Virus record (IMG/VR): IMGVR_UViG_3300044451_000218
DNA length: 64,000 bases
Strand: one strand, 5' to 3'
Origin: an uncultured virus (IMG/VR IMGVR_UViG_3300044451_000218)
Lineage: Duplodnaviria; Heunggongvirae; Uroviricota; Caudoviricetes
A program made the translations under genes and the position numbers. Positions 1 to 64,000 of the stretch are shown piece by piece. Every line of letters begins with the position of its first letter. Position 1 is the stretch's first letter. The notes below the pieces were generated by a model, which was not told the origin of the DNA, ran no database searches, and saw only the letters and a program-made list of their open reading frames with translations.

Positions 1-3000
1 GCCGTCGTCAACACCACCGGGTGTTCCTTCTTCACCTTCTCGTTGAATGCTCTCAGGTCGGCCTCGTTGTCCTGAACGTCGAAACCGCCCAGGCGAGCCT
101 TGAGCCACTTCTTGAAGTCTTTGACGGTCGGCATCGGTTTGGCCGCGACCGCCCGCATCATCGCGTCGTGCGCCCGGTCGTCCATCTCCTCCACGTCACG
201 CGACATCCCGGTGAACGCCGCCAGTGCGGAGTAAAGAGCTTCCGAGGTGGCGTTCATTTCCTGTAGGTACGCCTTCTTGGAGTTCATCGAACTGAACCGC
301 TCGTTTTCTTTCTTCTGGTACTCTTCGAGCTTCACGCCGAGGTTCGGCCGACCGCCCGCTCGCGGGTGCGGGATCGCCGGGGAATCGTCCCTCATCTTGG
401 CCCCCTTCAAGACCTTGCCGATGTGACGCATCAATTCGTTTGACACGTCGCGACCCACGATGATGAACGGCACGCCGTCGCCCAACATCTTCAACGCGGC
501 CTGAACCAGCGGTTCGTTGGTACGGGCGATGAACGCCGTTTCCGGCATTTTCGGCCCGCCCTTTTTCGAGTCCTCGTGTTCCTTCTTGAGCGTGGTGAAG
601 ACCTCGCCATATTCCTTGTCTTGGTTTGTGACTTCGCCACCACCGCCGTTCGGGTACTTGCTCTCACTGTGTTTGAGGCCGGTAACGTGGCCCATGTTGT
701 TGACGTGGTCGAGAATGCCCTTCCGCGAGCGGTAGTTCGTCGTCAGCGTGTGTTCCGTGTCCTTGTCGCCCGAAAGCTCTTTCAGGGTCCGGCCGAGGCT
801 GTGGAAGGCGTCACCGTCAGCGCCACGGAAGCGGTAAATGGCTTGGTTCGGGTCGCCTACCGCCACGATCTTCGCGCCGGCACCGTGCAACTTCTCCAGC
901 ATCAGCTTTTGGCACGGGTTGAAGTCCTGCACCTCGTCGGCGAGGACCACGTCGTAGTGCGGCCAGTGCATGTCGTGGGCGTTGATCGCGGCGAACCAGA
1001 TGTCGTCCGAGAAGTCGCGCATGCTGCCCAGGTCGTATTCCATGCCCTTGAAACTGAGGGTCTGCGTCGTTCCCTTCGGCAGACTAGCCTTCAGCAGCCA
1101 CTCGGCTGCCTCAGCGATCTCGTCCTTAAAGTTCTTGCCCATGAAGTCGAAGCCGTAGACCTTCTTCAGAGCGGCCAGAACTTCCGTGACCATGCTGCTC
1201 GAACGGTACTTCCTGATGCGTTCTTTGATTTCGGCCAGCCCGGTATCGAGGTCGTAACCCTTGAACAGCTTTTCGAGTTCGGCCTTGACGTGGTTGCCGT
1301 CTTTTCGCGGATCGACGCCGTAAGCTTTCGCCAAGTCAGCGACCTTCTGCGAGACTTCCTTGAACATATAGCGGATGGAGTGTGCGCAGCTTTTCGCGGC
1401 CGTCGTTGAGTATTCCCCAATCGGCATCTTCTCGATGATGGCGTCGGCGGTCGCGTCTTCAACGATGCCTAGTTTCTTCAGCACCTCGTTGAACTGCGAT
1501 CCGTCCACGATTTCGCCCATTTTGCTTCGCGGCATCGGCGACTTTTCTTCCTCGTCCTCGTCTTCCGAAGCCTTGTTCCGCTTCTTGTTGAGTACCTCGA
1601 TCATCCGCTCGGTCTGGTCGATCCGGCTGACATTCTCGTTCGACTTCAGCAAGTTGCCGAGGAAGCCGTTCGTGGTGCGAACGTCAACCCAGGAGGTTGG
1701 GAACTTCTCTTGAGCCTCGACCTTGTTCTTGGTGTTGAACACCAGATACAGCCAGCGTTCGCCCGGCTTGCCGTATTTCCACGCCAAGTGCTTCAACATC
1801 GTCGTGTTGTGTGTTACGACGCAGTTTTCTGTGACGTACAAGTTGTCTTTCGCGTCAACCGCAATGCATTGACACGGTTTTTTGCCAATCGAAGTGATTG
1901 ACTTGATGACCCTAGACGGCTGATACTTTGTTTTGGGAGTGTACTTCTCCTGTTTCCTTTTCAAAGAAAAGGGATTGCCAGAGATTTTGATGTACACTCG
2001 GTAGCAAGGCTTGCCTGATTTTTTGACCCCTTTGTATGTGTAACTCGTTTTCTTGTGGGTGATTTTCCCGGTTCCGCCCAGTGACTCAACGAGGAATTTA
2101 ATGTCTTTGGCAAGACGATACGAAGCGGTAGGGTAGAAAATCGTGTGGGTTCCGACTTCTCCATCTGTGTCGAGAAGTCCGCTCAACACTTTCGCTCTTG
2201 TCTCAACTGTATTGAATTTGTAAATGTCTGGAACAAATTTATTGTCGGACCCCATTCTCCACAAGCCTAGTTTTTTGATCTCTGCCACAATTTCGTTCTT
2301 CCGGCCTTTGATGCCGCTTGAAATACGATAATCGCAGCCATATCCTGTCGGCCGGCTTTTCAAAGCAGGAGGCAGTAACCGATCAACGCTTTCGACTATT
2401 TCTTTGTCTTCCGATGAGTAGGACACGCAGCCGGTTCTGAAACTCCCGCCACCCAGAAGCACGCCCATTAAATACGGATCAATGATTGTCAGTTGCGAAG
2501 CAAACTCGACGTTTTCGACCATTGGAACATAGTGTTTTGGTTGTTTTCTGTAGAGCAAATCGCCAGCAATTTCTTTGGTAGTTAGGACTTTGCCATAAGA
2601 GAAAAGAGGTATTCCCTTTTGTTGACAGTAGACTCTTTCTCGTTTGCATTCTGTCAGCCAAAGGTGATCTTCAGAGCATTCCACAATGGACCCGTCCATA
2701 AATCCGACTTCGACCACTTCTTGCATCCCTTGAGGGAAGACTCCAATAACTTTGTGTGGTTTGCCGTCACGTCCAATGACCAGATTATTGACTTTAATGT
2801 CGCCCATCCTGATCCAGCCTTTTGGGGTCAAGATTTTGGAATCAAGTGGTTGAGCTTTGCCCGACCCGGCCAGAGCGTTGATCATCATGTGATCCTGGCT
2901 CTTGCTGGACATCATCTGCTCGAACCGCGCGTCGATCCGTCGCTGTTCGTCCGACAATTTCTCGTGTTCGAGGACGTGCTTTTTCTTGTCCGCGTCGTTC

Positions 3001-3794
3001 GGCTTGCCCTTCGACAACTTGCCCTCGACCAAATCGTGCAACTCGGCCAGACTCGGCGCGGAGTAGATGCTCTTGCCGTCATCCTGTTTGACCGACTGCA
3101 CCACGTTCGGGAGGTCGGACTTGGTAGTCGCGGCCATACGCTGGCCGCCGAACGTCCAGATCTCCCAAGCGCCGTTCTCGGCCTCGACAACGCCCACGTC
3201 TTCGTCGGCCTTGATCGTTTCGATGTCCTGCTTGGTTTTGGCGTAGATCCACTTCTGGCCCTTAGCAGGTGCGGCCGATGGCTTTGCTTGAGTTTGAGCT
3301 TGTTGTGGTTGTTGCGGCTGTGTGGCTCTGTGGGTGGCGGCGACTTGTCGGAGAGCTTCGATGGAGTCGGCCATTACCGGGGTGTTCCCGTCGCGGACGG
3401 ACTTGACGTAGTTCGCCAGTTCTTTTTCAGACACGAAGGCGCGGGCGTTCGTGTCGAGGTGGACGACTTCCCACGTCCCTTCACGGGGTTTTGAAACGCC
3501 CACGTCATCGCCGGCCTTCAATTGACCGACCGGCTTGATGATTCGACTGTAGATCCAGCGACCCGTGGGCTGTTTGTTGGTTTCCAAGAGGCACCTTGAG
3601 AGGATTTCGTCCTGAATTTCCAGATAAAATGCGTCACCCAGGTCGCTGCGGTGGTAGTTTTCAGCGATCCATTTTAGGTCGGAAACTGACGTTTCGCTGC
3701 CGAAATAGAAGTTCTTGTAGAACCGCGAGCGGCATTCTGAAACGAGCCAGTTTTTGAAGTCGAGTTTCATGTTGTCCTTGTTCTGCTTTCCCAT
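1..3794 (-). CDS. UvrD/Rep (SF1) helicase with long N-terminal extension and an intein; runs off the left edge (absent from ORF track)
   Basis: Manual translation: (MGKQNKDN)MKLDFKNWLVSE... Walker A INALAGSGK|intein|TTMLKHLA, Walker B YDVVLADEVQDFNPCQ, motif III VAVGDPNQAIYRFRGAD. Alternative ATG at 3770. Confidence 0.88.
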   Translation of the reverse strand, partial: MGKQNKDNMKLDFKNWLVSECRSRFYKNFYFGSETSVSDLKWIAENYHRSDLGDAFYLEIQDEILSRCLLETNKQPTGRWIYSRIIKPVGQLKAGDDVGVSKPREGTWEVVHLDTNARAFVSEKELANYVKSVRDGNTPVMADSIEALRQVAATHRATQPQQPQQAQTQAKPSAAPAKGQKWIYAKTKQDIETIKADEDVGVVEAENGAWEIWTFGGQRMAATTKSDLPNVVQSVKQDDGKSIYSAPSLAELHDLVEGKLSKGKPNDADKKKHVLEHEKLSDEQRRIDARFEQMMSSKSQDHMMINALAGSGKAQPLDSKILTPKGWIRMGDIKVNNLVIGRDGKPHKVIGVFPQGMQEVVEVGFMDGSIVECSEDHLWLTECKRERVYCQQKGIPLFSYGKVLTTKEIAGDLLYRKQPKHYVPMVENVEFASQLTIIDPYLMGVLLGGGSFRTGCVSYSSEDKEIVESVDRLLPPALKSRPTGYGCDYRISSGIKGRKNEIVAEIKKLGLWRMGSDNKFVPDIYKFNTVETRAKVLSGLLDTDGEVGTHTIFYPTASYRLAKDIKFLVESLGGTGKITHKKTSYTYKGVKKSGKPCYRVYIKISGNPFSLKRKQEKYTPKTKYQPSRVIKSITSIGKKPCQCIAVDAKDNLYVTENCVVTHNTTMLKHLAWKYGKPGERWLYLVFNTKNKVEAQEKFPTSWVDVRTTNGFLGNLLKSNENVSRIDQTERMIEVLNKKRNKASEDEDEEEKSPMPRSKMGEIVDGSQFNEVLKKLGIVEDATADAIIEKMPIGEYSTTAAKSCAHSIRYMFKEVSQKVADLAKAYGVDPRKDGNHVKAELEKLFKGYDLDTGLAEIKERIRKYRSSSMVTEVLAALKKVYGFDFMGKNFKDEIAEAAEWLLKASLPKGTTQTLSFKGMEYDLGSMRDFSDDIWFAAINAHDMHWPHYDVVLADEVQDFNPCQKLMLEKLHGAGAKIVAVGDPNQAIYRFRGADGDAFHSLGRTLKELSGDKDTEHTLTTNYRSRKGILDHVNNMGHVTGLKHSESKYPNGGGGEVTNQDKEYGEVFTTLKKEHEDSKKGGPKMPETAFIARTNEPLVQAALKMLGDGVPFIIVGRDVSNELMRHIGKVLKGAKMRDDSPAIPHPRAGGRPNLGVKLEEYQKKENERFSSMNSKKAYLQEMNATSEALYSALAAFTGMSRDVEEMDDRAHDAMMRAVAAKPMPTVKDFKKWLKARLGGFDVQDNEADLRAFNEKVKKEHPVVLTT
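1806..2855 (-). mobile_element. 350-aa intein with LAGLIDADG homing endonuclease domain, inserted in the helicase P-loop (class 3-like)
   Basis: GK|AQPLDSKILTP...CSEDHLW...YLMGVLLGGGS...LSGLLDTDG...PCQCIAVD...YVTENCVVTHN|TT; visibly more AT-rich than the flanks. Confidence 0.92.
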
Positions 3795-3901
3795 CACGGT
3801 TATGTAGTTACGCGGAACCGAACTCAAACTGGCAGTTTTTCGATCTCGGCATTGTCACAATCGAGCGTTTCGGTTACGCTTTCTCGAAACGGAGGTTTAC
3901 G

Positions 3902-4433
3902 ATGTGGCCCGAAGACATGGTGGTCGATTCCCCCGACTACATCCCCCTTCAGCCGAACATCGAGCCGAGGGAAATCGTCCGTAAAGTTTACAATTCCTAC
4001 TACTTCGCACGCGATTGCGAAATGACGGACAGGTGTTACCGGATCGGCGTCCGCATTCGCGGGGCCGACAACGTTTCCTACGTCACCCGCAAGGAGTTCC
4101 AGAAGCACTCCATCGACCCGGTCGGCTATCTGGCCGGCAAAACCAAATTGGTTGACGTGGGCGTTTCCGACCACACGAAGACCATCATCTTCTTCTTCGT
4201 GGGACGAGCTTCATGCCGCGACACTCACGAGGGAGCAAATCTTCTACGTCGCGTGCTGTTTGTCGGGCGGCGAGAAGGGAACGTATATCCCAGAGTGGCA
4301 GTTGCGACTCTGGGAGATCAAGACACTGGTTCTCTGCGGCGTCAAATACGAGTTCGCCATCTACGAGCGCCCGCCGCTCAACTGGTGGCAGTTTCCAGAC
4401 ATCATGATGTACCTGAAGAGGGTCGAGCCGTGA
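3902..4433 (+). pseudogene. Hypothetical protein, apparently frameshifted near 4200
   Basis: GGAGG RBS before ATG 3902; phage-like coding appears to switch frame at ttcttcttcgtgggac into ...WDELHAATL...KRVEP*. Confidence 0.45.
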
Positions 4434-4782
4434 ACTACCTGATCGAACACAAAGAACTGGCGATCTGCTCGCTGATCGTCGGGCTGTTCCTGCCGATGGT
4501 CGTGCGAAAGATCTACTCGACGTTCTGCTGGTGCGGGGAGAAGGCCGTCGCGTTCTTCGACAACCCCTACGGCACTGGCATACTGACTGCGATTCTGGTG
4601 GCGGGCCAGTTTTTCTGGCTCCAGCAGTGGATTTTCGCCTATAACGAGGTTACACAACACGACCGTACAACAGGTTCGTATACACGCCGATCACGGTGGC
4701 GATTCCGATGTTCTTCGCGAACATCGCGTTCATCATCATGGCGGCACTTCGGACGGTCGGCGCAATCGACGCGAGAAAGTGA
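4430..4782 (+). pseudogene. Membrane protein, apparently frameshifted near 4660
   Basis: GTG start MNYLIEHKELAICSLIVGLFL...; the hydrophobic continuation RFVYTPITVAIPMFFANIAFIIMAALRTVGAIDARK* is in another frame. Confidence 0.45.
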
Positions 4783-7143: not shown

Positions 7144-7214
7144 CCACCTTTGGGCCAGTGGCTGGCCAGCGATCTCTAAAATCGCGCACATCGGTTCGAT
7201 TCCGATAAGGTGGG
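7144..7214 (+). tRNA. Amber suppressor tRNA, anticodon CUA
   Basis: Acceptor CCACCTT/AAGGTGG, D arm GGCC-AGTGGCT-GGCC, anticodon arm GCGAT-CTCTAAA-ATCGC (CTA at 7176-7178), variable loop GCAC, T arm ATCGG-TTCGATT-CCGAT, discriminator G; no encoded CCA. Confidence 0.9.
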
Positions 7215-7280
7215 CTGAATCTAAAACAAAATTTGCATTGGTCAGAACGACAATCGGTTCGATCCCCACAAGGTGGGCTG
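7190..7280 (+). repeat. 28-bp imperfect direct repeat of the tRNA 3' end (7190-7217 and 7253-7280)
   Basis: ATCGGTTCGATTCCGATAAGGTGGGCTG vs ATCGGTTCGATCCCCACAAGGTGGGCTG, 25/28 identical, 35-nt spacer. Confidence 0.85.
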
Positions 7281-16675: not shown

Positions 16676-17113
16676 ATGACCGTCGTCTGCCAGAACCGCA
16701 AAGCCCGCTTCGATTATGAGGTTGTCGAAACCGTCGAAGCGGGTATTGTGCTGAAAGGCACGGAAATCAAATCCGTGCGAAACCACCGCGTTTCTCTCGA
16801 CGGAGCGTATGCCAGCGTGGACGCCGGAAACGTTACGCTAGTCGGCTGCAACATCGAGCCGTATTCGCACGGCAATGTTCACAATCACGAAGCCAAGCGT
16901 GACCGACGCCTGTTGCTCAACCGGAGCGAGATCGACAAGATCGCGAGCAAAGCGGCGGTGAGGGGGTTCACGTTGATCCCGCTGTCGATGTACATCAAGG
17001 ACGGTCGCGCCAAGATCGAACTGGCCGTCTGTCGCGGTCGGCAGACGCACGACAAGCGGCACGCCATCAAGGACCGCGAAGTGAAGAAGGCGATGAAACG
17101 GGGAAAATTCTGA
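16676..17113 (+). CDS. smpB: SsrA-binding protein SmpB
   Basis: NRKARFDY, EAGIVLKGTEIKSVR, RRLLLNRSEI, GFTLIPLSMY, HDKR. Confidence 0.95.
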   Translation: MTVVCQNRKARFDYEVVETVEAGIVLKGTEIKSVRNHRVSLDGAYASVDAGNVTLVGCNIEPYSHGNVHNHEAKRDRRLLLNRSEIDKIASKAAVRGFTLIPLSMYIKDGRAKIELAVCRGRQTHDKRHAIKDREVKKAMKRGKF

Positions 17114-30954: not shown

Positions 30955-31956
30955 ATGACGGACTTCGACGTGATCGTCCCGCACAAGTCGGTCAGCAGCG
31001 AACGCCTCGGCGAGTGCTGTGAGATCATGATTCGCGGCAACGACGCTTACCGCAAGTGGATGCCGAACATCACCCGGCGTCGGAGTCGCGAGTGCCGCGA
31101 CCTGATCGTCAAGGGCAAGAGCGACGAGGTTCTGAAGTACATTCCGGCCGAGCGGCACGCCGAGTTCAAGGCCGATCTGCCGGTGATCTGCAACGTCGAG
31201 TCCGTGATGAACGACTTGCTCGGCCACCACGTCAGGATGATCGTCAAACTCGCAACCCGCTGGTCAAAGACCAACGAGGGCGAGAAGTCGGCGAAGCGGT
31301 CCTACTACGACGGCGGCGATCTGGCGAGCGAAGGGTTCATCGCCATGTTCGACGCCATCCGCAACTACAACCGGGACCACATCAAGTTCGTGACCTACGC
31401 TTGGACCACTGTGAACCGCCGGATGTTCGCCTCCCTCATGGCGACTTCCCCCATGTCTTGCTTCACGCGGCAAGAGCAGAAGATGCTCAAGAACGCCGTC
31501 AAGAAGCAGTTGGAAACCGGGAACCGCAATCTGGCGGATGCGGTCGCGGGCGGTGTCGTGACGGGCGACCAAGCCGCGCTGGTGCGGGAAATGCTCACGA
31601 TCAAGGTGGTTCTGGCGTCCCGTCTGGAAGAGTCGATGGGACCGGACAGCGAGGGGTTCGACTTCACCAGCATGCGGGAAGGCGTCTCTACCGACCGTTC
31701 GGGGCAGCCCAACGATGCTTGGGGGTTGTACGACTTCATGGAACGTGCGGAACTGGACGACTGCGAGCAGGACGTGCTGTTGTCGAGCCTCACGCCCTTC
31801 CGGGGCTGGCAGGCCGAATGCTCCACGCGGCACAACCTGTCGCGAACCTCCGTCCACAACATTCTGCAACGGGCGTGCAACAAGATTCGGCACGTTGCCG
31901 GTCTGCGCGAAACCGACGCCAACATCGCCCAGTTGATGGTGTCGATGTCTGACTAA
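30955..31956 (+). CDS. Sigma70-family RNA polymerase sigma factor
   Basis: Region 2 DLASEGFIAMFDAIRNYNRDHIKFVTYAWTTV; region 4 LSRTSVHNILQRACNKIR. Confidence 0.85.
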   Translation: MTDFDVIVPHKSVSSERLGECCEIMIRGNDAYRKWMPNITRRRSRECRDLIVKGKSDEVLKYIPAERHAEFKADLPVICNVESVMNDLLGHHVRMIVKLATRWSKTNEGEKSAKRSYYDGGDLASEGFIAMFDAIRNYNRDHIKFVTYAWTTVNRRMFASLMATSPMSCFTRQEQKMLKNAVKKQLETGNRNLADAVAGGVVTGDQAALVREMLTIKVVLASRLEESMGPDSEGFDFTSMREGVSTDRSGQPNDAWGLYDFMERAELDDCEQDVLLSSLTPFRGWQAECSTRHNLSRTSVHNILQRACNKIRHVAGLRETDANIAQLMVSMSD

Positions 31957-42893: not shown

Positions 42894-43379
42894 ATGAGTT
42901 TCGAGGAAGTCCTGCGGCAGAAGATCAGCGGCACCAAGTCCAAAGTCGGCCGCAGCGTGCTGAAGGTCGCTCTGGGCGAGTTCCAGCAGAAGAACGCCAA
43001 CGGAAAGGCTACCGAACAGGACGGCCTTTCCGTTGTCGAGAAGATCATCAACGGCAACCGCGAAACGCTCGCCGTTTTGAAACAAGAAGACGCCCGTCGC
43101 GCCGACCTCGAAGAAGAGATCGTTACCCTCTCGTCGCTCCTCCCGACCTACCTGACGGCGGATGAGGTGTTGGAGAAGGTCCGCGCCGACAGTTCGCTGT
43201 TCGGGGAAGTCAATACAGTGCTGAGTCAAGGCGACAAAACCCGTCCGGTCGAAGACCCTGCGAACGCCAAGCTGGTCGGTCGCGCGACGGGTTCGGTCGT
43301 CAAGTTCTTCAAGTCGGCAAACATTGCCGTGAAGGGCGACACCGTCAAAGAAGCCCTGTCGCGGTTGTTTCGTGAATAG
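42894..43379 (+). CDS. GatB/YqeY domain protein
   Basis: VLKVALGEFQ...EEEIVTLSSLLPTYLTADEV...VKGDTVK. Confidence 0.7.
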   Translation: MSFEEVLRQKISGTKSKVGRSVLKVALGEFQQKNANGKATEQDGLSVVEKIINGNRETLAVLKQEDARRADLEEEIVTLSSLLPTYLTADEVLEKVRADSSLFGEVNTVLSQGDKTRPVEDPANAKLVGRATGSVVKFFKSANIAVKGDTVKEALSRLFRE

Positions 43380-55830: not shown

Positions 55831-56946
55831 ATGAACATCCTCCGCAAACTCGTACTACGCATTCACGAAACTCCGACCCGTGCCGTCCTCGCCATCACCG
55901 GGGGCGGCACGGAAGCAATCGGGGAGCTTCTGCGTTATGGACAAGGCTCCAGCACCATTCTGGAAGCCGTCGTCCCATACGACCAACAAGCGTTCCGCGA
56001 CTTCGTCAAAGGCACGCCCGACAAGTATTGCTCGTCGGAAGCCGCCAACGATCTCGCGGCATCGGCTTATCTTCGCGCCCGCCAATTAACGAGCGAAGGG
56101 CCGGTCGTCGGCGTGGGCGTCACCTGTTCGCTCACGAAGGACGGAGAGCGAGCGGGCCGCAAGCACAACGCATACATCGCCGTACAGGGTGACGACTCGA
56201 CATACGAGTGCGAGGTTCTGCTGAAAGATGCCGTTCGCACCCGCGCCGAACAAGAGGCTCGTGTGGCCGAGGCCATCATCGGCTGTCTGGCGATGATGTG
56301 CGGAATCCCGGCGTCCGAAAATTGCATGTCACACAACCTCATCTGCAACGGCACCCACTACGGCGTCGGGCAAGAACTGATGGATGTGTGCAGGGGGCAA
56401 CTGGACGTTACGCCGCAGTGCAGCCGCGAAAATCGCGTCATCTTCTCCGGGGCGTTCAATCCGCTCCACGCGCAACACGAAAAGATCGCGGCGAAGGTGG
56501 CCGAACTCACCGGGCAACGTGTCGATCTGGAAGTCTGCATCAAGAACGTGGACAAGCCCGCGCTCAGTCACGCGGTCATTCATCAACGGCGTGACCATTT
56601 GAGTGTGGCTATGTACCAGAAGGATTGGGCCGGTTCACTGTTCTGGACCAGCACACCCACCTTCAAGCAGAAGGCTCTGGCCTTCCCGAAGTCCACCTTC
56701 GTCATCGGGTGGGACACCTTCACGCGGCTCAACGATCCCAAGTACGGCGATCTTGACGAAGCCGTGGCCGTGTTCAGGAAGATGGGTACAAAATTCCTTG
56801 TCTTCCATCGTATCATCAACGGCGTATCCAGTGCGGACGCCCCGGCGACCGAATGGCGAATGGCCGAGTTCGCCAAGATCATCTCGGCCGAGGAACTTCC
56901 TCCGGTCGATATTTCCAGCACTCAGATCCGTAACGCGGGAACCTGA
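55831..56946 (+). CDS. CinA-like domain fused to a cytidylyltransferase/NMNAT-like domain
   Basis: AITGGG..GSSTILEAVVPY; IFSGAFNPLHAQH; FVIGWDT; ISSTQIR. Confidence 0.75.
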   Translation: MNILRKLVLRIHETPTRAVLAITGGGTEAIGELLRYGQGSSTILEAVVPYDQQAFRDFVKGTPDKYCSSEAANDLAASAYLRARQLTSEGPVVGVGVTCSLTKDGERAGRKHNAYIAVQGDDSTYECEVLLKDAVRTRAEQEARVAEAIIGCLAMMCGIPASENCMSHNLICNGTHYGVGQELMDVCRGQLDVTPQCSRENRVIFSGAFNPLHAQHEKIAAKVAELTGQRVDLEVCIKNVDKPALSHAVIHQRRDHLSVAMYQKDWAGSLFWTSTPTFKQKALAFPKSTFVIGWDTFTRLNDPKYGDLDEAVAVFRKMGTKFLVFHRIINGVSSADAPATEWRMAEFAKIISAEELPPVDISSTQIRNAGT

Positions 56947-57928: not shown

Positions 57929-58917
57929 ACGAAAAGAAACTGATACTCGTTCGGGTCGAACAGTACGTCAGCCCCGAATGGGGACAAGACCGCACCCAGT
58001 GGGTCAGGTACTTCTTGGCACCCGACCTCGAAACTGTCAAAAAGACCGTGTACGAGCGGTACGGCAAGCCACACTACTACAGCATGGACCGCGAAGAACT
58101 GAAATACAGCTTCAGCGAAGAACAGTTCGAGACACTCGACACGAGGATCGAAGACCGTGAGTGATATGAAAAACAAACTGCAAAAGGTCGTCTTCCTCAA
58201 AGACCACCGCTGTTTCAAAGCCGGCGAAGAGGTCGAGTTCGGCCCCGCCGTCAACCTGCTTGAAACCTGTCATGAGCGTATGTAGTATTACAAGACAAAG
58301 TTAAAAAAGGAGATAGCCGTGACCAAGTGGAAAGCGACGTGGCGGTGCGACCTAGAAGAAGAATTCTGCACCGACTTCCACGTCTACGAACTCGACACCC
58401 AGACACTCAGCGAAGCCGCACTGTTCATCGAACAGGACATCGGCTGTCGCGGCACCCTCATCAGCCTCGAACGCGAACTATGAACTACACGCGGCAATCG
58501 ATCCTCGAAGCCCTCAAACTCGCCGGCAAGCCCATCAACCGCGACAAGCTATTCAAAGAGTGGATCGAATACGCCGACATGGACCTCGTCCGCTTCAGCG
58601 AACAAGTGGTGACGGGCAGCGGCACGCTAATGGTCTTCAACGCCGCCGTCGTAGACCTCCTCAACAGTCATGAACCCCGCACAAGAAGTGTGTTTCAAAC
58701 TGATCGTCAAATTGACACGCGGCCTCGAAGCACAAGGGGTACTCGCCACTTATCCGTACCTAAGAGAACAATCGGGCAAACAAGCTCCAAGCACGATCCC
58801 GCACTTTGAACACTGCTTCCGGCAAGCACTCAAAGACGAACTGATCTTCGACATCAAGGGGTTGTATTCCACCAAGCGGCCCGGCGGCATCCGCGACCTC
58901 GATGACGGCTGGCAATC

Positions 58918-59783: not shown

Positions 59784-60161
59784 GACGAACTCCTTTAGTT
59801 GGGCCGGATCAGTCTACACCGCCACAACCAGTACCGGAGGCCGAACAATGAATCAAGACCAACAACCGCCAGCTACAGACCCGCACGCCCCGAAACACCT
59901 GAAACCGCTCCGCATCTTACGCAGAACCCCGAACAGATCACCGAGGAACTCAAAGCGAGAGCCTCGAAGGTCAAGAAGAAGATCGCACGACTCGAAAAGC
60001 TGAAACGGGTCAGCCACGAAGTCATGCGGATGCGGTGTTGCGCGGCTCCCTAGTTAAGAACAAACTAGCAGAGCGTCATGCCAAAAAAGTGATTTCCCCA
60101 ATGGGAGATGCCATTTTGGTCTATACTGACATCCTCGTGATTAAGGGCGAGGGCGACAGCA

Positions 60162-61637
60162 GTGAAGAACTTCAACGTGGCAACAGATTCCTTGTTCTTT
60201 GTCGCCGAGGGCGATCAAGAAAAGCTCGTTTCTGCTCTCGACATCGAGAAGAACGGCAAGAAGTATTCACAGTTTCTTGGCTCGCCAATGCAACAGGCGA
60301 CCTACATGAACGCCATCGTCGCCATCCTCAGCGATTTGAAGGCCAATGGGAACACGTCCCAATACGACATGTCCACCTTCATGCAGCAGCCCGACTTGTC
60401 AACCAAGTACAACATCTACTTCCCGTGGAAAACGCTCGCGAAAAACGATGTGCATCGCGAGATCGGCTATTGCAGTTCACGGATTCCTGTAGGCCAAAAC
60501 GAAGCGTATCGTTTTAACCCGCACCCACAAGCTTTTGAGTACGAGCTTTGCCAACGATGCTGCGCATATGGTTTTTTGGAAAACATCCTGTTTGCCCGTA
60601 GTGGTGGGCAAGGATGGAGTCCTGCTTTGGCCGGTGAAAACCCCCTGTATGTCTGGAAGACCGGGGAGAACCTCGCCGACTTCATTCAACTGAACAGCGG
60701 CCAGCCTGAAAAGGCCGGGTGGGACGTTCTGAAAACCCTCGGTACTCCAGAATCTCCCAACTTGCTAACGCGCAATCAAACATACACATACAACCCAAGA
60801 CTGATGGAATGTGTGTGGAAGGCACCGCTACAACCTTGCTTTTTGTGCGGCGACTGTGAAATGCCTCATGGCAGTGAAATGTATTCTCGTGGGATCAATA
60901 CGAAGTTTACCAAAGAGTCACTTTTGAAAGGCTTTCAGAAGAAATGGCACGGGTTCAAACCGACCGAGAAGGAACATTTCTTAATTGTCCCGTGCGAAGA
61001 TGATAGGAAACTTGTGCGTAAAGACGGCAAACGCATGATCGCTACGGCAGACAACAAAACTATTGCCGAAGCCGCCTACGCTCAATTTGGTGACAAATGG
61101 ATCGCAATCGGAATGATGGTTGAAAGTGTTAAGAAGTCCTCGATTTTCGAGCAGTATCTCGTGACCCCTGACACTTGCCCGCAGCGAAGGAAACAGCCCC
61201 CGCACAAAAACTTCAAGAAGAGGCTTGACGGCTCAAGGCCCAAAGTCGTTGTTCCAAAACCGATCATCTCTACAGCGGAGGTAAGCCGCGAGATGATCGC
61301 AAAGGCCGTCGCATGCCTGAGCGAGATCCCCCAAGAAAAGCTCGCAATGTTACGCAACGCCTGTTACGGCGCGAGGCATGAAAGCGATGCCGAGGTGTTG
61401 GATTTTCTGGACGGTCTTTGGCGGAAGGTTTACCAGAAGACCCGACTGACTTTCAAGAGGGTCTTTTTTCAACTGGTTCTCGCCTACGCCTGCAACCCGC
61501 GCAGTCGCAAGAGCGGTTACCTTGCTAAACATTTGGCTCGCAACGTTCAGCTATTGGCACAATCGCCCTGTTCTGCCGTTGTGTTCGGCGAAGTCGATTG
61601 GTACTGTGTTTTCTCAACCATGTGTGGAGTGAAGTAA
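60162..61637 (+). CDS. cas8e: Type I-E Cas8e (Cse1)-like protein with probable C-terminal Cas11 (Cse2)-like fusion
   Basis: FNVATDSLFFV; LCQRCCAYG; ARSGGQGWSPALAGENPL; GENLADFIQLN; CFLCG; C-terminal LAMLRNA...EVDWYCVF. Confidence 0.75.
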   Translation: MKNFNVATDSLFFVAEGDQEKLVSALDIEKNGKKYSQFLGSPMQQATYMNAIVAILSDLKANGNTSQYDMSTFMQQPDLSTKYNIYFPWKTLAKNDVHREIGYCSSRIPVGQNEAYRFNPHPQAFEYELCQRCCAYGFLENILFARSGGQGWSPALAGENPLYVWKTGENLADFIQLNSGQPEKAGWDVLKTLGTPESPNLLTRNQTYTYNPRLMECVWKAPLQPCFLCGDCEMPHGSEMYSRGINTKFTKESLLKGFQKKWHGFKPTEKEHFLIVPCEDDRKLVRKDGKRMIATADNKTIAEAAYAQFGDKWIAIGMMVESVKKSSIFEQYLVTPDTCPQRRKQPPHKNFKKRLDGSRPKVVVPKPIISTAEVSREMIAKAVACLSEIPQEKLAMLRNACYGARHESDAEVLDFLDGLWRKVYQKTRLTFKRVFFQLVLAYACNPRSRKSGYLAKHLARNVQLLAQSPCSAVVFGEVDWYCVFSTMCGVK

Positions 61638-61638
61638 A

Positions 61639-63150
61639 ATGGCTACGCTCAGAAATGTGTTCCTCGGCATGTCGCAAATTACGCACTACGGTGCGGGACT
61701 TCCGAATCGCGACAAGAGCGGTGTGTACAAACATATCCCCGTGGGCAACGTGGATCGCGGGATGGTGTCGCCACAGTGCCGCCGTCAGCACGTTCGTGAA
61801 GAGATCGTCAAGCGTATGCCGCACCTCGAACTTTCCGACCAGACGCGGCACTACCCAGACATCCTCATCCCGATGTTGACAGACACGTCCGATAAATTCG
61901 GCGGCGTCGCGTTGACCGAATCGGAAGCAAATGTGGTCATGCAGTATTTCCGCACCCTGCTACAGAAGAAGACCCGCGAAACGAAAAACGGTCGTTCAAA
62001 CGCCACCTACAAACATTGGCCGGACTCCATGCGACTGGTGGCTGCGGCATGTCGAAAAATCAAAGAGAATGGCGGGCAACAATGGTCCGACATTTCCACC
62101 CCGTCATCCACCATCGTCATCGAGAACATTCTCGCCGATCTGGGGCTTGAGAAACAGGACAAAAACGATGACGATGATGATGACAAGAAAGATCCCGAAC
62201 TGGAAGCCACTCGCAACCGAATCCTCAAAGAACTCCCCGGCCGCATGGAGGCCGCGAAGATCGGTTACGATCAAGGTAACGAATTGAAGGCACTCGTTAT
62301 CGCCATCCGCGATAACGTGCCGCAAGAGCAGCCGGAACAAGCGGAGAAAATCGAGAAGCCCAACCAGAAGCCTCAAGCCGGTGGCAAGAGGGGTGCCAAG
62401 AAGACCGTCGAAACCAGCGGACTGGATGAAATTCGCGATAATTTCAAGAAAGCCTTGCTCGCAGAGACGAGCAAAATCAAGGGCAAGAAAATGCTTCGGC
62501 TTTCTGACTGGTGTGTGCCGCCATTCGACGTAGCCCTGTTCGGCAACATGCCCAACGAGAACCTCCACCGGCAGGTTACGCCCGCCATGAACAACACGGC
62601 GGCTATCTCAGTCAACCCGTTGGCCCCGGTCACCGTTTTCAATACCATCGTTGATACCAAACGGCCGGAATCGAACATGGTGCCGGATCAGAGCTACATG
62701 TACGACGCCGTTATGTACTCGTTCGACATGCTTGACTCCAACCAGTTGTTCCAGAACATGGAGCGAGAGGCCACGGTCGCAGAAGTCGAAGCACTGATCG
62801 CGTCGTTCATCGAGTCACTGCCCGGTGCCAAACGCGGCACCTCGGCGATCAATTCGCCGCCGATTCTCGTATCAATCGTGCTGTCGGAGTACAACCAACT
62901 GTGTTGCGAACGCGCCTTCGTAGAGGCAATCAATACGCAAACGGATGATGTTTCACGCATCGCCACCGAACGGCTGTACGGTTTCATGCAGAAGAACCAA
63001 GAACAGTGGGAACCTCTCGATACGTTCGTCTACTCGGTCGATCCCGTACCAGAGAAACTCAAAGCCCGAACCTACCGCAACACGCGGAAGTTCGCGCGAG
63101 CCGTCGCCGAACGCTACGTTGAACTGCGTTGTAGCGTGACCAAGAAGTAA
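61639..63150 (+). CDS. cas7e: Type I-E Cas7 (Cse4/CasC) with a large charged insertion
   Basis: PNRDKSG..K...RGMVSPQCRRQHVR; FDVALFGNM; AISVN; LPGAKRGTSA. Confidence 0.88.
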   Translation: MATLRNVFLGMSQITHYGAGLPNRDKSGVYKHIPVGNVDRGMVSPQCRRQHVREEIVKRMPHLELSDQTRHYPDILIPMLTDTSDKFGGVALTESEANVVMQYFRTLLQKKTRETKNGRSNATYKHWPDSMRLVAAACRKIKENGGQQWSDISTPSSTIVIENILADLGLEKQDKNDDDDDDKKDPELEATRNRILKELPGRMEAAKIGYDQGNELKALVIAIRDNVPQEQPEQAEKIEKPNQKPQAGGKRGAKKTVETSGLDEIRDNFKKALLAETSKIKGKKMLRLSDWCVPPFDVALFGNMPNENLHRQVTPAMNNTAAISVNPLAPVTVFNTIVDTKRPESNMVPDQSYMYDAVMYSFDMLDSNQLFQNMEREATVAEVEALIASFIESLPGAKRGTSAINSPPILVSIVLSEYNQLCCERAFVEAINTQTDDVSRIATERLYGFMQKNQEQWEPLDTFVYSVDPVPEKLKARTYRNTRKFARAVAERYVELRCSVTKK

Positions 63151-63203: not shown

Positions 63204-64000
63204 ATGAGCGTCATCAAACTGTTTTTGGCCGGCTCACGACAGTGTTACGGACTCGAAAATATCGGCCAAACCAAGCCGTGGCCGACCAAAAGCGCCGTCG
63301 CTGGCATCGTGGCAAATGCGCTCGGCCTCGACTACAAAGACACGACCGAATTCCTCAAAGATTTCAATAAGACCAAAGTACACGTTCGCGTGGACTCTCC
63401 CGGTTCTATCTGCGAAGACTTCCAAGTCGCCACCGGGTTTGGTGATGCAAACGGCCGCGCCCGCACAATGAAGGAAAAGGTTGCTTACGTCGATAACGGG
63501 GTCGTTAAAGAATATAACGCCCCGAAAAAAACCATGTTTACACCCACATACCTCTGCGATGCGAGGTTCATGGTTTTTATCGAAGGCCGACGCGAGGTTC
63601 TCGAAACTTGGGTCGCCGATCTCGAACGGCCCAAACGTCCCCTTTATCTCGGACGGTCGTCATGCCTCCCAAGTGAAAACATCTTCGTGTCCCACGAGGA
63701 CCGAGACATTCAGGAACTGATCGAGAACAGTGTACTCGAACTACTGCCGGGAACCAAATACGAGGGTCAAAAAACACTCAATACGATCATGGAAGTCCAG
63801 AGTGGCGGGTACTTCATCCGAGATGTCGTTCTTACGTTCAAACCGAGCCACACACACGGTTCACGAATGGTTGTTCAAAAGCCAGTGGTCGTGAAAAATG
63901 TTGTCCCGTGGCTGCAAGGCGTGGGCCTTTCCGGGCGAAGAAATCGTCCGAGTAAAAAGGCACGCGATGAACGCCTTTCATATGACAACAATCGTTGCGT
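63204..64000 (+). CDS. cas5e: Type I-E Cas5 (CasD) with C-terminal extension resembling an HNH start; runs off the right edge (absent from ORF track)
   Basis: Manual translation: WPTKSAVAGIVANALG, VRVDSPG..EDFQ, YLCDARF, PKRPLYLGRSSCLPS; still open at SKKARDERLSYDNNRC. Confidence 0.88.
   Translation, partial: MSVIKLFLAGSRQCYGLENIGQTKPWPTKSAVAGIVANALGLDYKDTTEFLKDFNKTKVHVRVDSPGSICEDFQVATGFGDANGRARTMKEKVAYVDNGVVKEYNAPKKTMFTPTYLCDARFMVFIEGRREVLETWVADLERPKRPLYLGRSSCLPSENIFVSHEDRDIQELIENSVLELLPGTKYEGQKTLNTIMEVQSGGYFIRDVVLTFKPSHTHGSRMVVQKPVVVKNVVPWLQGVGLSGRRNRPSKKARDERLSYDNNRC

Follow-up and report, generated by a model that had tools for sequence, protein, structure and literature searches.

P0001, a protein encoded on a viral contig of 475,914 bp, has three parts, namely the N-terminal domain of Cas8e, a basic linker predicted to be disordered, and a Cas11 of reduced length; the four-helix bundle of Cas8e is deleted. 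Its gene was found in a window, here meaning the whole stretch of DNA that was analysed, of 64,000 nucleotides. Judged by its genes, the operon is of type I-E2 (HNH-Cascade), with Cas8e, Cas11 (fused and shortened), Cas7e and Cas5e-HNH all present (Table 1). A sequence-only reading of this DNA had proposed such a fusion of a shortened Cas8e to Cas11, and the folds, relatives and profile comparison of P0001 confirmed it. Fusion and bundle loss were both supported, but the Cas5-HNH (I-E2) character of the operon, the single Cas11 and the Cas3-independent cutting had been missed.

Table 1. Features of the fusion gene and its operon (window coordinates)
Feature	Position	Strand	Remarks
cas8e-cas11 fusion gene (P0001), 491 aa	60162..61637	+	intact ORF, GTG start, TAA stop
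Cas8e N-terminal (PAM-reading) domain, residues 1-339	60162..61178	+	fold and profile match; C130, C133, C226, C229
linker, residues 340-377	61179..61292	+	basic, Pro-rich, predicted disordered, net charge +8
candidate internal ribosome-binding site GGAGGT (61277-61282) and in-frame ATG, Met378 (61293-61295)	61277..61295	+	10-nt spacer
shortened Cas11 (Cse2) domain, residues 378-491, 114 aa	61293..61637	+	
cas7e, 503 aa	61639..63150	+	PF09344 E 6e-30 (above cut-off); TIGR01869 E 9e-21 (below its cut-off)
cas5e-HNH, first 265 of 352 codons inside the window	63204..64000	+	HNH domain begins at the window edge

Domains of the large subunit

That no separate cse2 precedes cas7 had already been read from the letters, and it is borne out by the gene borders: cas7e starts 1 nt past the stop of the fusion gene, so there is no space for one. 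The fusion is not a misassembly, since a contig from the lake run X6, which is not among the flagged possible sources, covers positions 59823-61676 with no differences and no gaps. Two short, loose matches at 58631 and 59653, both involving a single 615-bp contig, were dismissed as chance. A scan for promoters and terminators stayed at chance level.

Neither Pfam nor NCBIfam assigned P0001 to a Cas family (Pfam to neither Cse1 nor Cse2) and PADLOC gave a weak Cas8e match (E 0.005, residues 72-180), so the parts were identified through relatives and folds. In the AlphaFold2 model of P0001 (mean pLDDT 76), residues 1-339 superimpose on Cas8e N-terminal domains, in agreement with the earlier placement of Cas8e in the first 340 aa or so. 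They fit best on residues 80-413 of 8zlu_C, a subunit of a Cas5-HNH Cascade (Z 25.2, rmsd 3.2, 287 aligned residues). All 18 Cas8e rows of the fold comparison end at model residues 335-343, which is the end of the N-terminal domain. Furthermore, a search of 1.84 billion representatives with P0001 returned 24 matches including the query, and Pfam Cse1 was present in 22 of the 23 others. A profile of four relatives led to the PDB Cse1 8yb6_J (E 3e-8). The four cysteines listed in Table 1 are of zinc type and invariant across the four closest proteins; the zinc site of E. coli Cse1, as described in the available part of PMC5965380, has the same cysteine pattern.

The C-terminus had been described as a Cse2-like helical region of about 120 aa, a description that proved right, as residues 378-491 are a shortened Cas11. 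Folded alone, from six relatives of which none has a Pfam Cse2 match, residues 370-491 reached a pLDDT of 79. In a fold search of 48,161 chains, five of the seven top rows for this domain were Cas11-type chains. These were 8yb6_K at rank 1 (rmsd 3.8, 111 aligned residues; its Z of 7.4 is in the range called common for helical domains), 2zca_A (Z 5.8) and 5h9e_B (Z 5.3) at ranks 2 and 3, and 4h79_A and 5u07_B at ranks 5 and 7, with 3wa8_B further down at rank 17. The PDB titles of 2zca, 4h79 and 3wa8 name Cse2/CasB, while 8yb6_K, 5h9e_B and 5u07_B were taken as Cas11 from their chain length within a Cascade entry. No Cas8 chain was among the best 50 rows of this wide search. In Foldseek, too, the leading match was 8yb6_K (probability 0.90, E 0.43).

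The same region could be thought of as a diverged native Cas8e bundle and not as Cas11. Either would be a small helical domain, and direct comparison of the sequences gives a weak signal: 9 bits against a profile of 50 Cas11 sequences, and no match for P0004-P0006 alone. Comparing profiles points to Cas11. HHalign of the six C-terminal regions against 50 bacterial Cas11 gave a probability of 89% (E 2e-6), but with the closest four proteins alone the match was weak at 3.8% (E 0.011); in both cases none of 100 column shuffles reached the score. Against the post-N-terminal regions of 48 Cas8 proteins, in contrast, the probability was 0.1% and the score was matched by 41-60 of 100 shuffles. Moreover, the LW..R and DW motifs of the C-terminal region align with the Pfam-confirmed Cse2 parts of full fusions. 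Together with the predominance of Cas11-type chains in the fold search, this largely refutes a bundle identity, to which we attach next to no probability. Structure prediction and Foldseek against Cse1 and Cse2, the check recommended with the sequence-only reading, place the C-terminal part with Cas11 and not with the bundle.

Other searches with the Cas11 domain returned little. An HMM of the six C-terminal regions retrieved no Cas11 from the PDB sequences and no free-standing relative of 61-214 aa. A two-copy complex prediction scored 0.00. In an Atlas feature search with residues 360-491, Cse1-labelled clusters came out at 0.76-0.78, below the lead threshold, and were not counted. Bacterial I-E2 Cas11 proteins measure about 160-170 aa, this one 114 aa. 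Its N-terminal helices and DW motif are still in place, while the last helix and some of the middle are missing.

Between the two domains, the basic, Pro-rich linker had been recognized correctly. The stretch quoted at that time corresponds to residues 342-367 and is predicted to be disordered, with a pLDDT below 50 for residues 343-372 of the AlphaFold2 model. About 38-39 residues separate the N-terminal domain from Cas11 in P0001, in a place normally taken by a bundle of 110-130 residues. In an alignment of 15 proteins, the corresponding gap measures 21-48 residues in eight (P0001 and seven others) and 111-127 residues in three full fusions with both Pfam domains; three unfused proteins of I-E2 type have 122-130 residues after the N-terminal domain. 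P0001 gave no match to a bundle profile built from 48 Cas8 post-N-terminal sequences. Judging from its charge, the linker probably plays a part in holding the displaced DNA strand.

A loss of the Cas3-docking region had been proposed as well. This stands only in part: the bundle is gone, but it forms just one part of the Cas3 site, which lies between the Cas8 bundle and base according to the available part of PMC5965380. Furthermore, all 48 complete bacterial relatives (Cas8) keep at least 113 residues after the N-terminal domain. This indicates that the loss of Cas3 permits the loss of the bundle and does not force it.

The operon as an HNH-Cascade

The variant with HNH on Cas5 is named I-E2 in the section of PMC12669027 available to us. 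Its Cascade holds one Cas11, and the HNH occupies the place of the second, as stated in the accessible text of Liu et al. (bioRxiv 2024.07.22.604555), where H310, D324 and four cysteines of Cas5-HNH are also given as essential. P0027, the complete 352-aa Cas5 encoded on the 475,914-bp contig, carries by alignment the equivalents of all of these, keeping H278, D291 and H300 together with C265, C268, C296 and C299. The best PDB match of P0027 is the Cas5-HNH 8yb6_A (residues 20-311, E 5e-21). Pfam gave no HNH match in this protein; the Atlas leads agree with an HNH.

With 503 aa, Cas7 stands against bacterial I-E2 Cas7 proteins of mostly 372-431 aa, 5 of 44 of which measure 568-676 aa. Its residues 170-260, approximately, form an acidic, Lys-rich low-complexity stretch. 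Elsewhere, a 676-aa ORF at L038:9904-11934 begins as Cas7.

The Cas5 linker motif RADY contacts Cas11, according to the available part of bioRxiv 2024.07.22.604555. It was found exactly or with one change in all seven unfused loci, and it is missing in all three fused ones, which suggests that the Cas5-Cas11 interface was rebuilt after fusion. The 64-kb window contains no CRISPR array or I-E2-type repeat, and no spacers were seen. I-E2 operons typically lack cas3; between 57 kb and cas8 the window has no ORF long enough for it, with about 410 kb of the contig lying outside this view. A cas6e and an array would be expected downstream of cas5-HNH, beyond the window edge.

Among known systems, the I-E2 system of Candidatus Cloacimonetes (8YB6, 8YHA, 8ZLU; PMC10910872) is the best structural match for the N-terminal and Cas11 domains and the best sequence match for Cas5-HNH. 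It shares the gene order cas8-cas11-cas7-cas5HNH and the same catalytic and zinc residues. The system of the probable phage differs by the deleted bundle, the fused Cas11 of 114 aa, the lost RADY, the 503-aa Cas7 and its location on a phage-like 476-kb contig, and identity in the structural alignments is about 18%. Canonical I-E1 (E. coli, T. fusca, T. thermophilus) has the Cas8e N-terminal fold (Z 18-22), the Cse2 fold and the Cas7e and Cas5e families in common with the phage system. There, however, Cas8e carries a four-helix bundle, Cse2 is present as two free copies and Cas3 takes part, whereas the phage system has no bundle, no separate cse2 and an HNH on Cas5. The I-F4 Cas8-HNH Cascade of Selenomonas (PMC11822464) is also without Cas3 and has its C-terminal Cas8 bundle swapped for another domain. 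There, the HNH replaces the Cas8f bundle, while in the phage system Cas11 follows the N-terminal domain of Cas8e and the HNH is on Cas5.

From the observed domain identities, the bundle loss, the intact Cas5-HNH partner and the recurrence of the layout, the working of the complex can be sketched with the help of the I-E2 structures. The Cas8 N-terminal domain would cap the 5' end of the crRNA together with Cas5 and read the PAM, Cas7 would serve as the backbone and bind the crRNA, and the HNH of Cas5 would cut the DNA. The single Cas11 would be supplied as a tethered domain, one per Cas8. Because an I-E2 Cascade contains a single Cas11 and no Cas3 docks to it, one tether per Cas8 would be enough and the bundle would be dispensable. 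Independence from Cas3 and a single Cas11 most simply explain the 1:1 tether and the loss of the bundle. We consider it rather probable that P0001 is the large subunit of an I-E2 HNH-Cascade in which the Cas8e bundle was deleted, the cas11 that followed was trimmed and fused in frame, and the tether suffices. The linker of about 38 residues would have to let Cas11 reach its usual site without the bundle. A free Cas11 from Met378 would not be needed, and may arise as a minor product. The large phage would likely use the complex to cut, guided by RNA, the DNA of its host or competing mobile elements. Deletion of Cas11 only halves editing by an HNH-Cascade (PMC10910872), and Cas11 is reported as dispensable in E. 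coli in the available part of PMC12235044.

Alternatively, the complex could be a nuclease-poor or incomplete binder, either a transcriptional silencer or a decoy using host crRNAs, and the fusion part of a decay within a phage. As might be expected of a decaying system, each of the three proteins sits on a long branch or scores below family cut-offs, Cas11 is trimmed, RADY is lost and no array lies inside the window. Against decay speak the intact catalytic residues and zinc cysteines of the HNH, the reading frames, which are open and identical in another run, and the layout, which is kept in three close relatives. We therefore see only a slim chance for such a binder.

The candidate internal start at Met378

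One feature counts against a pure tether, for which it would be superfluous: Met378, with a strong Shine-Dalgarno (SD) sequence, sits at the Cas11 boundary. This is the candidate start (MIAKAV) that the sequence-only reading had named. In P0001 its strong SD and its location at the Cas11 boundary speak for it, but at the protein level the site is not Met in any of the five aligned relatives. The 97 predicted genes of the window contain 354 internal in-frame ATGs, and none but Met378 has GGAGG at that upstream position. Scored against a generic anti-SD motif, its pairing of -10.9 kcal/mol ranks second among 244 internal ATGs and is stronger than that of each of the 51 gene starts tested. Met378 lies 21 residues before the conserved Arg; natural Cas11 starts lie 23 residues before it in 28 of the 32 measured.

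These features would be expected if one gene gave two products. The tethered mini-Cas11 would then replace the bundle, and a free Cas11 of 114 aa, translated from Met378, would fill the site beside the HNH, which we regard as possible but doubtful. It is similarly tentative that type I-E would have converged in this way on the layout of types I-B, I-C and I-D, the "hidden small subunit". There is precedent in these types, as internal translation of Cas11 is demonstrated in the available part of McBride et al. (bioRxiv 2020.04.18.045682), likewise with a C-terminal Cas11-like domain, an in-frame start and an SD-like motif at the boundary. In those systems, however, the large subunit belongs to another family, the start is conserved across lineages and was shown experimentally, and several Cas11 copies are needed, again going by that part of the source; the phage I-E2 system has one Cas11 site and a Met378 that its five relatives lack. 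The fusion itself appears to be old, because its relatives are only 27-46% identical, and a useless start signal should have decayed in the meantime.

Other observations weaken the case for two products. Two more distant bacterial I-E2 fusions (L079 and L080), which we assume to be active, have no ATG, GTG or TTG at the N-terminus of Cas11. In a fusion on a viral contig (L063), the GTG found at the Cse2 boundary lacks an SD motif. In addition, the chance that Ala-Glu-Val is written as GGAGGT by codon choice is about 15%, the 10-nt spacer is long, and local structure partly covers the site (-15.6 kcal/mol, more stable than at the other four starts folded). A second, free Cas11 from Met378 that is functionally needed is thus conceivable, though on balance unlikely, and the tethered domain remains our preferred source of Cas11.

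Recurrence of the layout and probable phage context

The bundle-less layout is shared by seven other proteins and by one bacterial I-E2 locus (L079). A GTDB scan based on the bacterial alignment of the Cas8e clade of P0001 gave 60 loci, none of them fused and 54 with a separate cas11, using patterns from close bacterial sequences that bias it against diverged fusions. HNH was present in all 49 GTDB loci with cas5 in view. A crude motif test for cas3 flagged two of the 60, many of which are incomplete. Two phylum samples of 401 genomes each yielded 7 and 28 genomes with a match, and two fusions among the 15 loci listed.

In L079 (G423), a 548-aa bundle-less fusion is followed by cas7, cas5-HNH, cas6 and cas1, and the preceding cas3 stops shortly after the helicase start. 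L080 (G255) has a 655-aa fusion in an I-E2 operon. In the viral L063, cas3 is complete, Cas5 has no HNH and the fusion retains the whole Cse1; no other fused locus seen has a full-length cas3. The pattern across fused loci fits the idea that the absence of Cas3 permits bundle loss, with very few independent cases. In a quick tree of the N-terminal domain, which has long branches, P0010 nests among unfused proteins. This suggests several origins of the fusion, and the tree was not used to order events.

Several related loci deserve a mention of their own. P0009 and P0013 resemble Cas8e but are about 300 aa long; both stop just past the N-terminal domain, with neither bundle nor Cas11, and a length of 302 aa is common to four members of the P0009 cluster. 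They may represent a possible stage in which the bundle was lost and Cas11 was still separate. P0007 and P0032 are bundle-less fusions as well; their contigs, which measure 387 kb and 652 kb, are possibly further giant phages. Unfused I-E2 operons adjoin portal and head genes of prophage-like elements in two IMG/VR loci (L001:3922-8259 and L062:6807-13200). At L030:7779-10572, cas8 is directly followed by cas5-HNH, with neither cas11 nor cas7 between them. The HNH at L080:3771-4967 lacks most zinc cysteines and has an insertion. L063:3987-10636 encodes cas3, a 696-aa Cse1-Cse2 fusion, cas7 and cas5, and adjoins an NAD-dependent DNA ligase.

HNH-Cascades cut DNA precisely and edit human cells, with the number and size of their subunits as the limit. 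A natural HNH-Cascade without the Cas8 bundle and with one gene less provides a ready-made template for a smaller editor, and with it one can test directly whether the bundle is needed for R-loop locking without Cas3. Unfused systems, full fusions and bundle-less fusions, with and without an internal start, form a living model for the origin of fusions and for hidden starts elsewhere in type I. Moreover, a self-cutting type I variant is added to the apparent cargo of large phages. If the gene does give two products, type I-E would have re-evolved the I-B/I-C/I-D design by domain replacement, enabled by dropping Cas3, and the system would be among the most compact self-cutting Cascades.

A Cas8-Cas11 fusion in HNH-Cascades received a one-line mention in 2023. 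Our literature search, which covered few subscription papers, found no bundle-less Cas8e-Cas11, no internal start in type I-E and no phage-borne I-E2. The locus drawings in Data S2 of bioRxiv 2024.07.22.604555 may already show the bundle-less form. The DNA of the window and close relatives were not found in the viral contigs or JGI metagenome contigs searched. Among GenBank phages, the Cas7 query had no match and a bacterial-type Cas5-HNH query matched Cas5 or HNH parts only.

The contig occurs in lake-water metagenomes, where seven runs, five of them possible sources, contain at least half of its words; no RNA run was among those listed. PHROGs matched 17 of 71 window proteins scanned at E <= 1e-5, including a head maturation protease. 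Most window genes are short and share one strand, and neither a capsid nor a terminase gene was seen within the window. The contig is likely that of a giant phage. Positions 1-4780 of the window have almost no gene called by a simple coding model, a reversed AT skew and no Rfam match; they possibly hold minus-strand genes or non-coding RNA. ARAGORN detected a tRNA with a CUA (amber) anticodon at 7144-7215. TAG is the stop in 4 of the 51 genes counted, and recoding is not evident. Host-like genes include a sigma factor (30955-31956), a tRNA amidotransferase-like gene (42894-43379) and a cytidylyltransferase-like gene (55831-56946). Finally, the gene at 16676-17113, placed by PHROGs in an unnamed family, encodes what we take from its sequence to be an SmpB-like protein.
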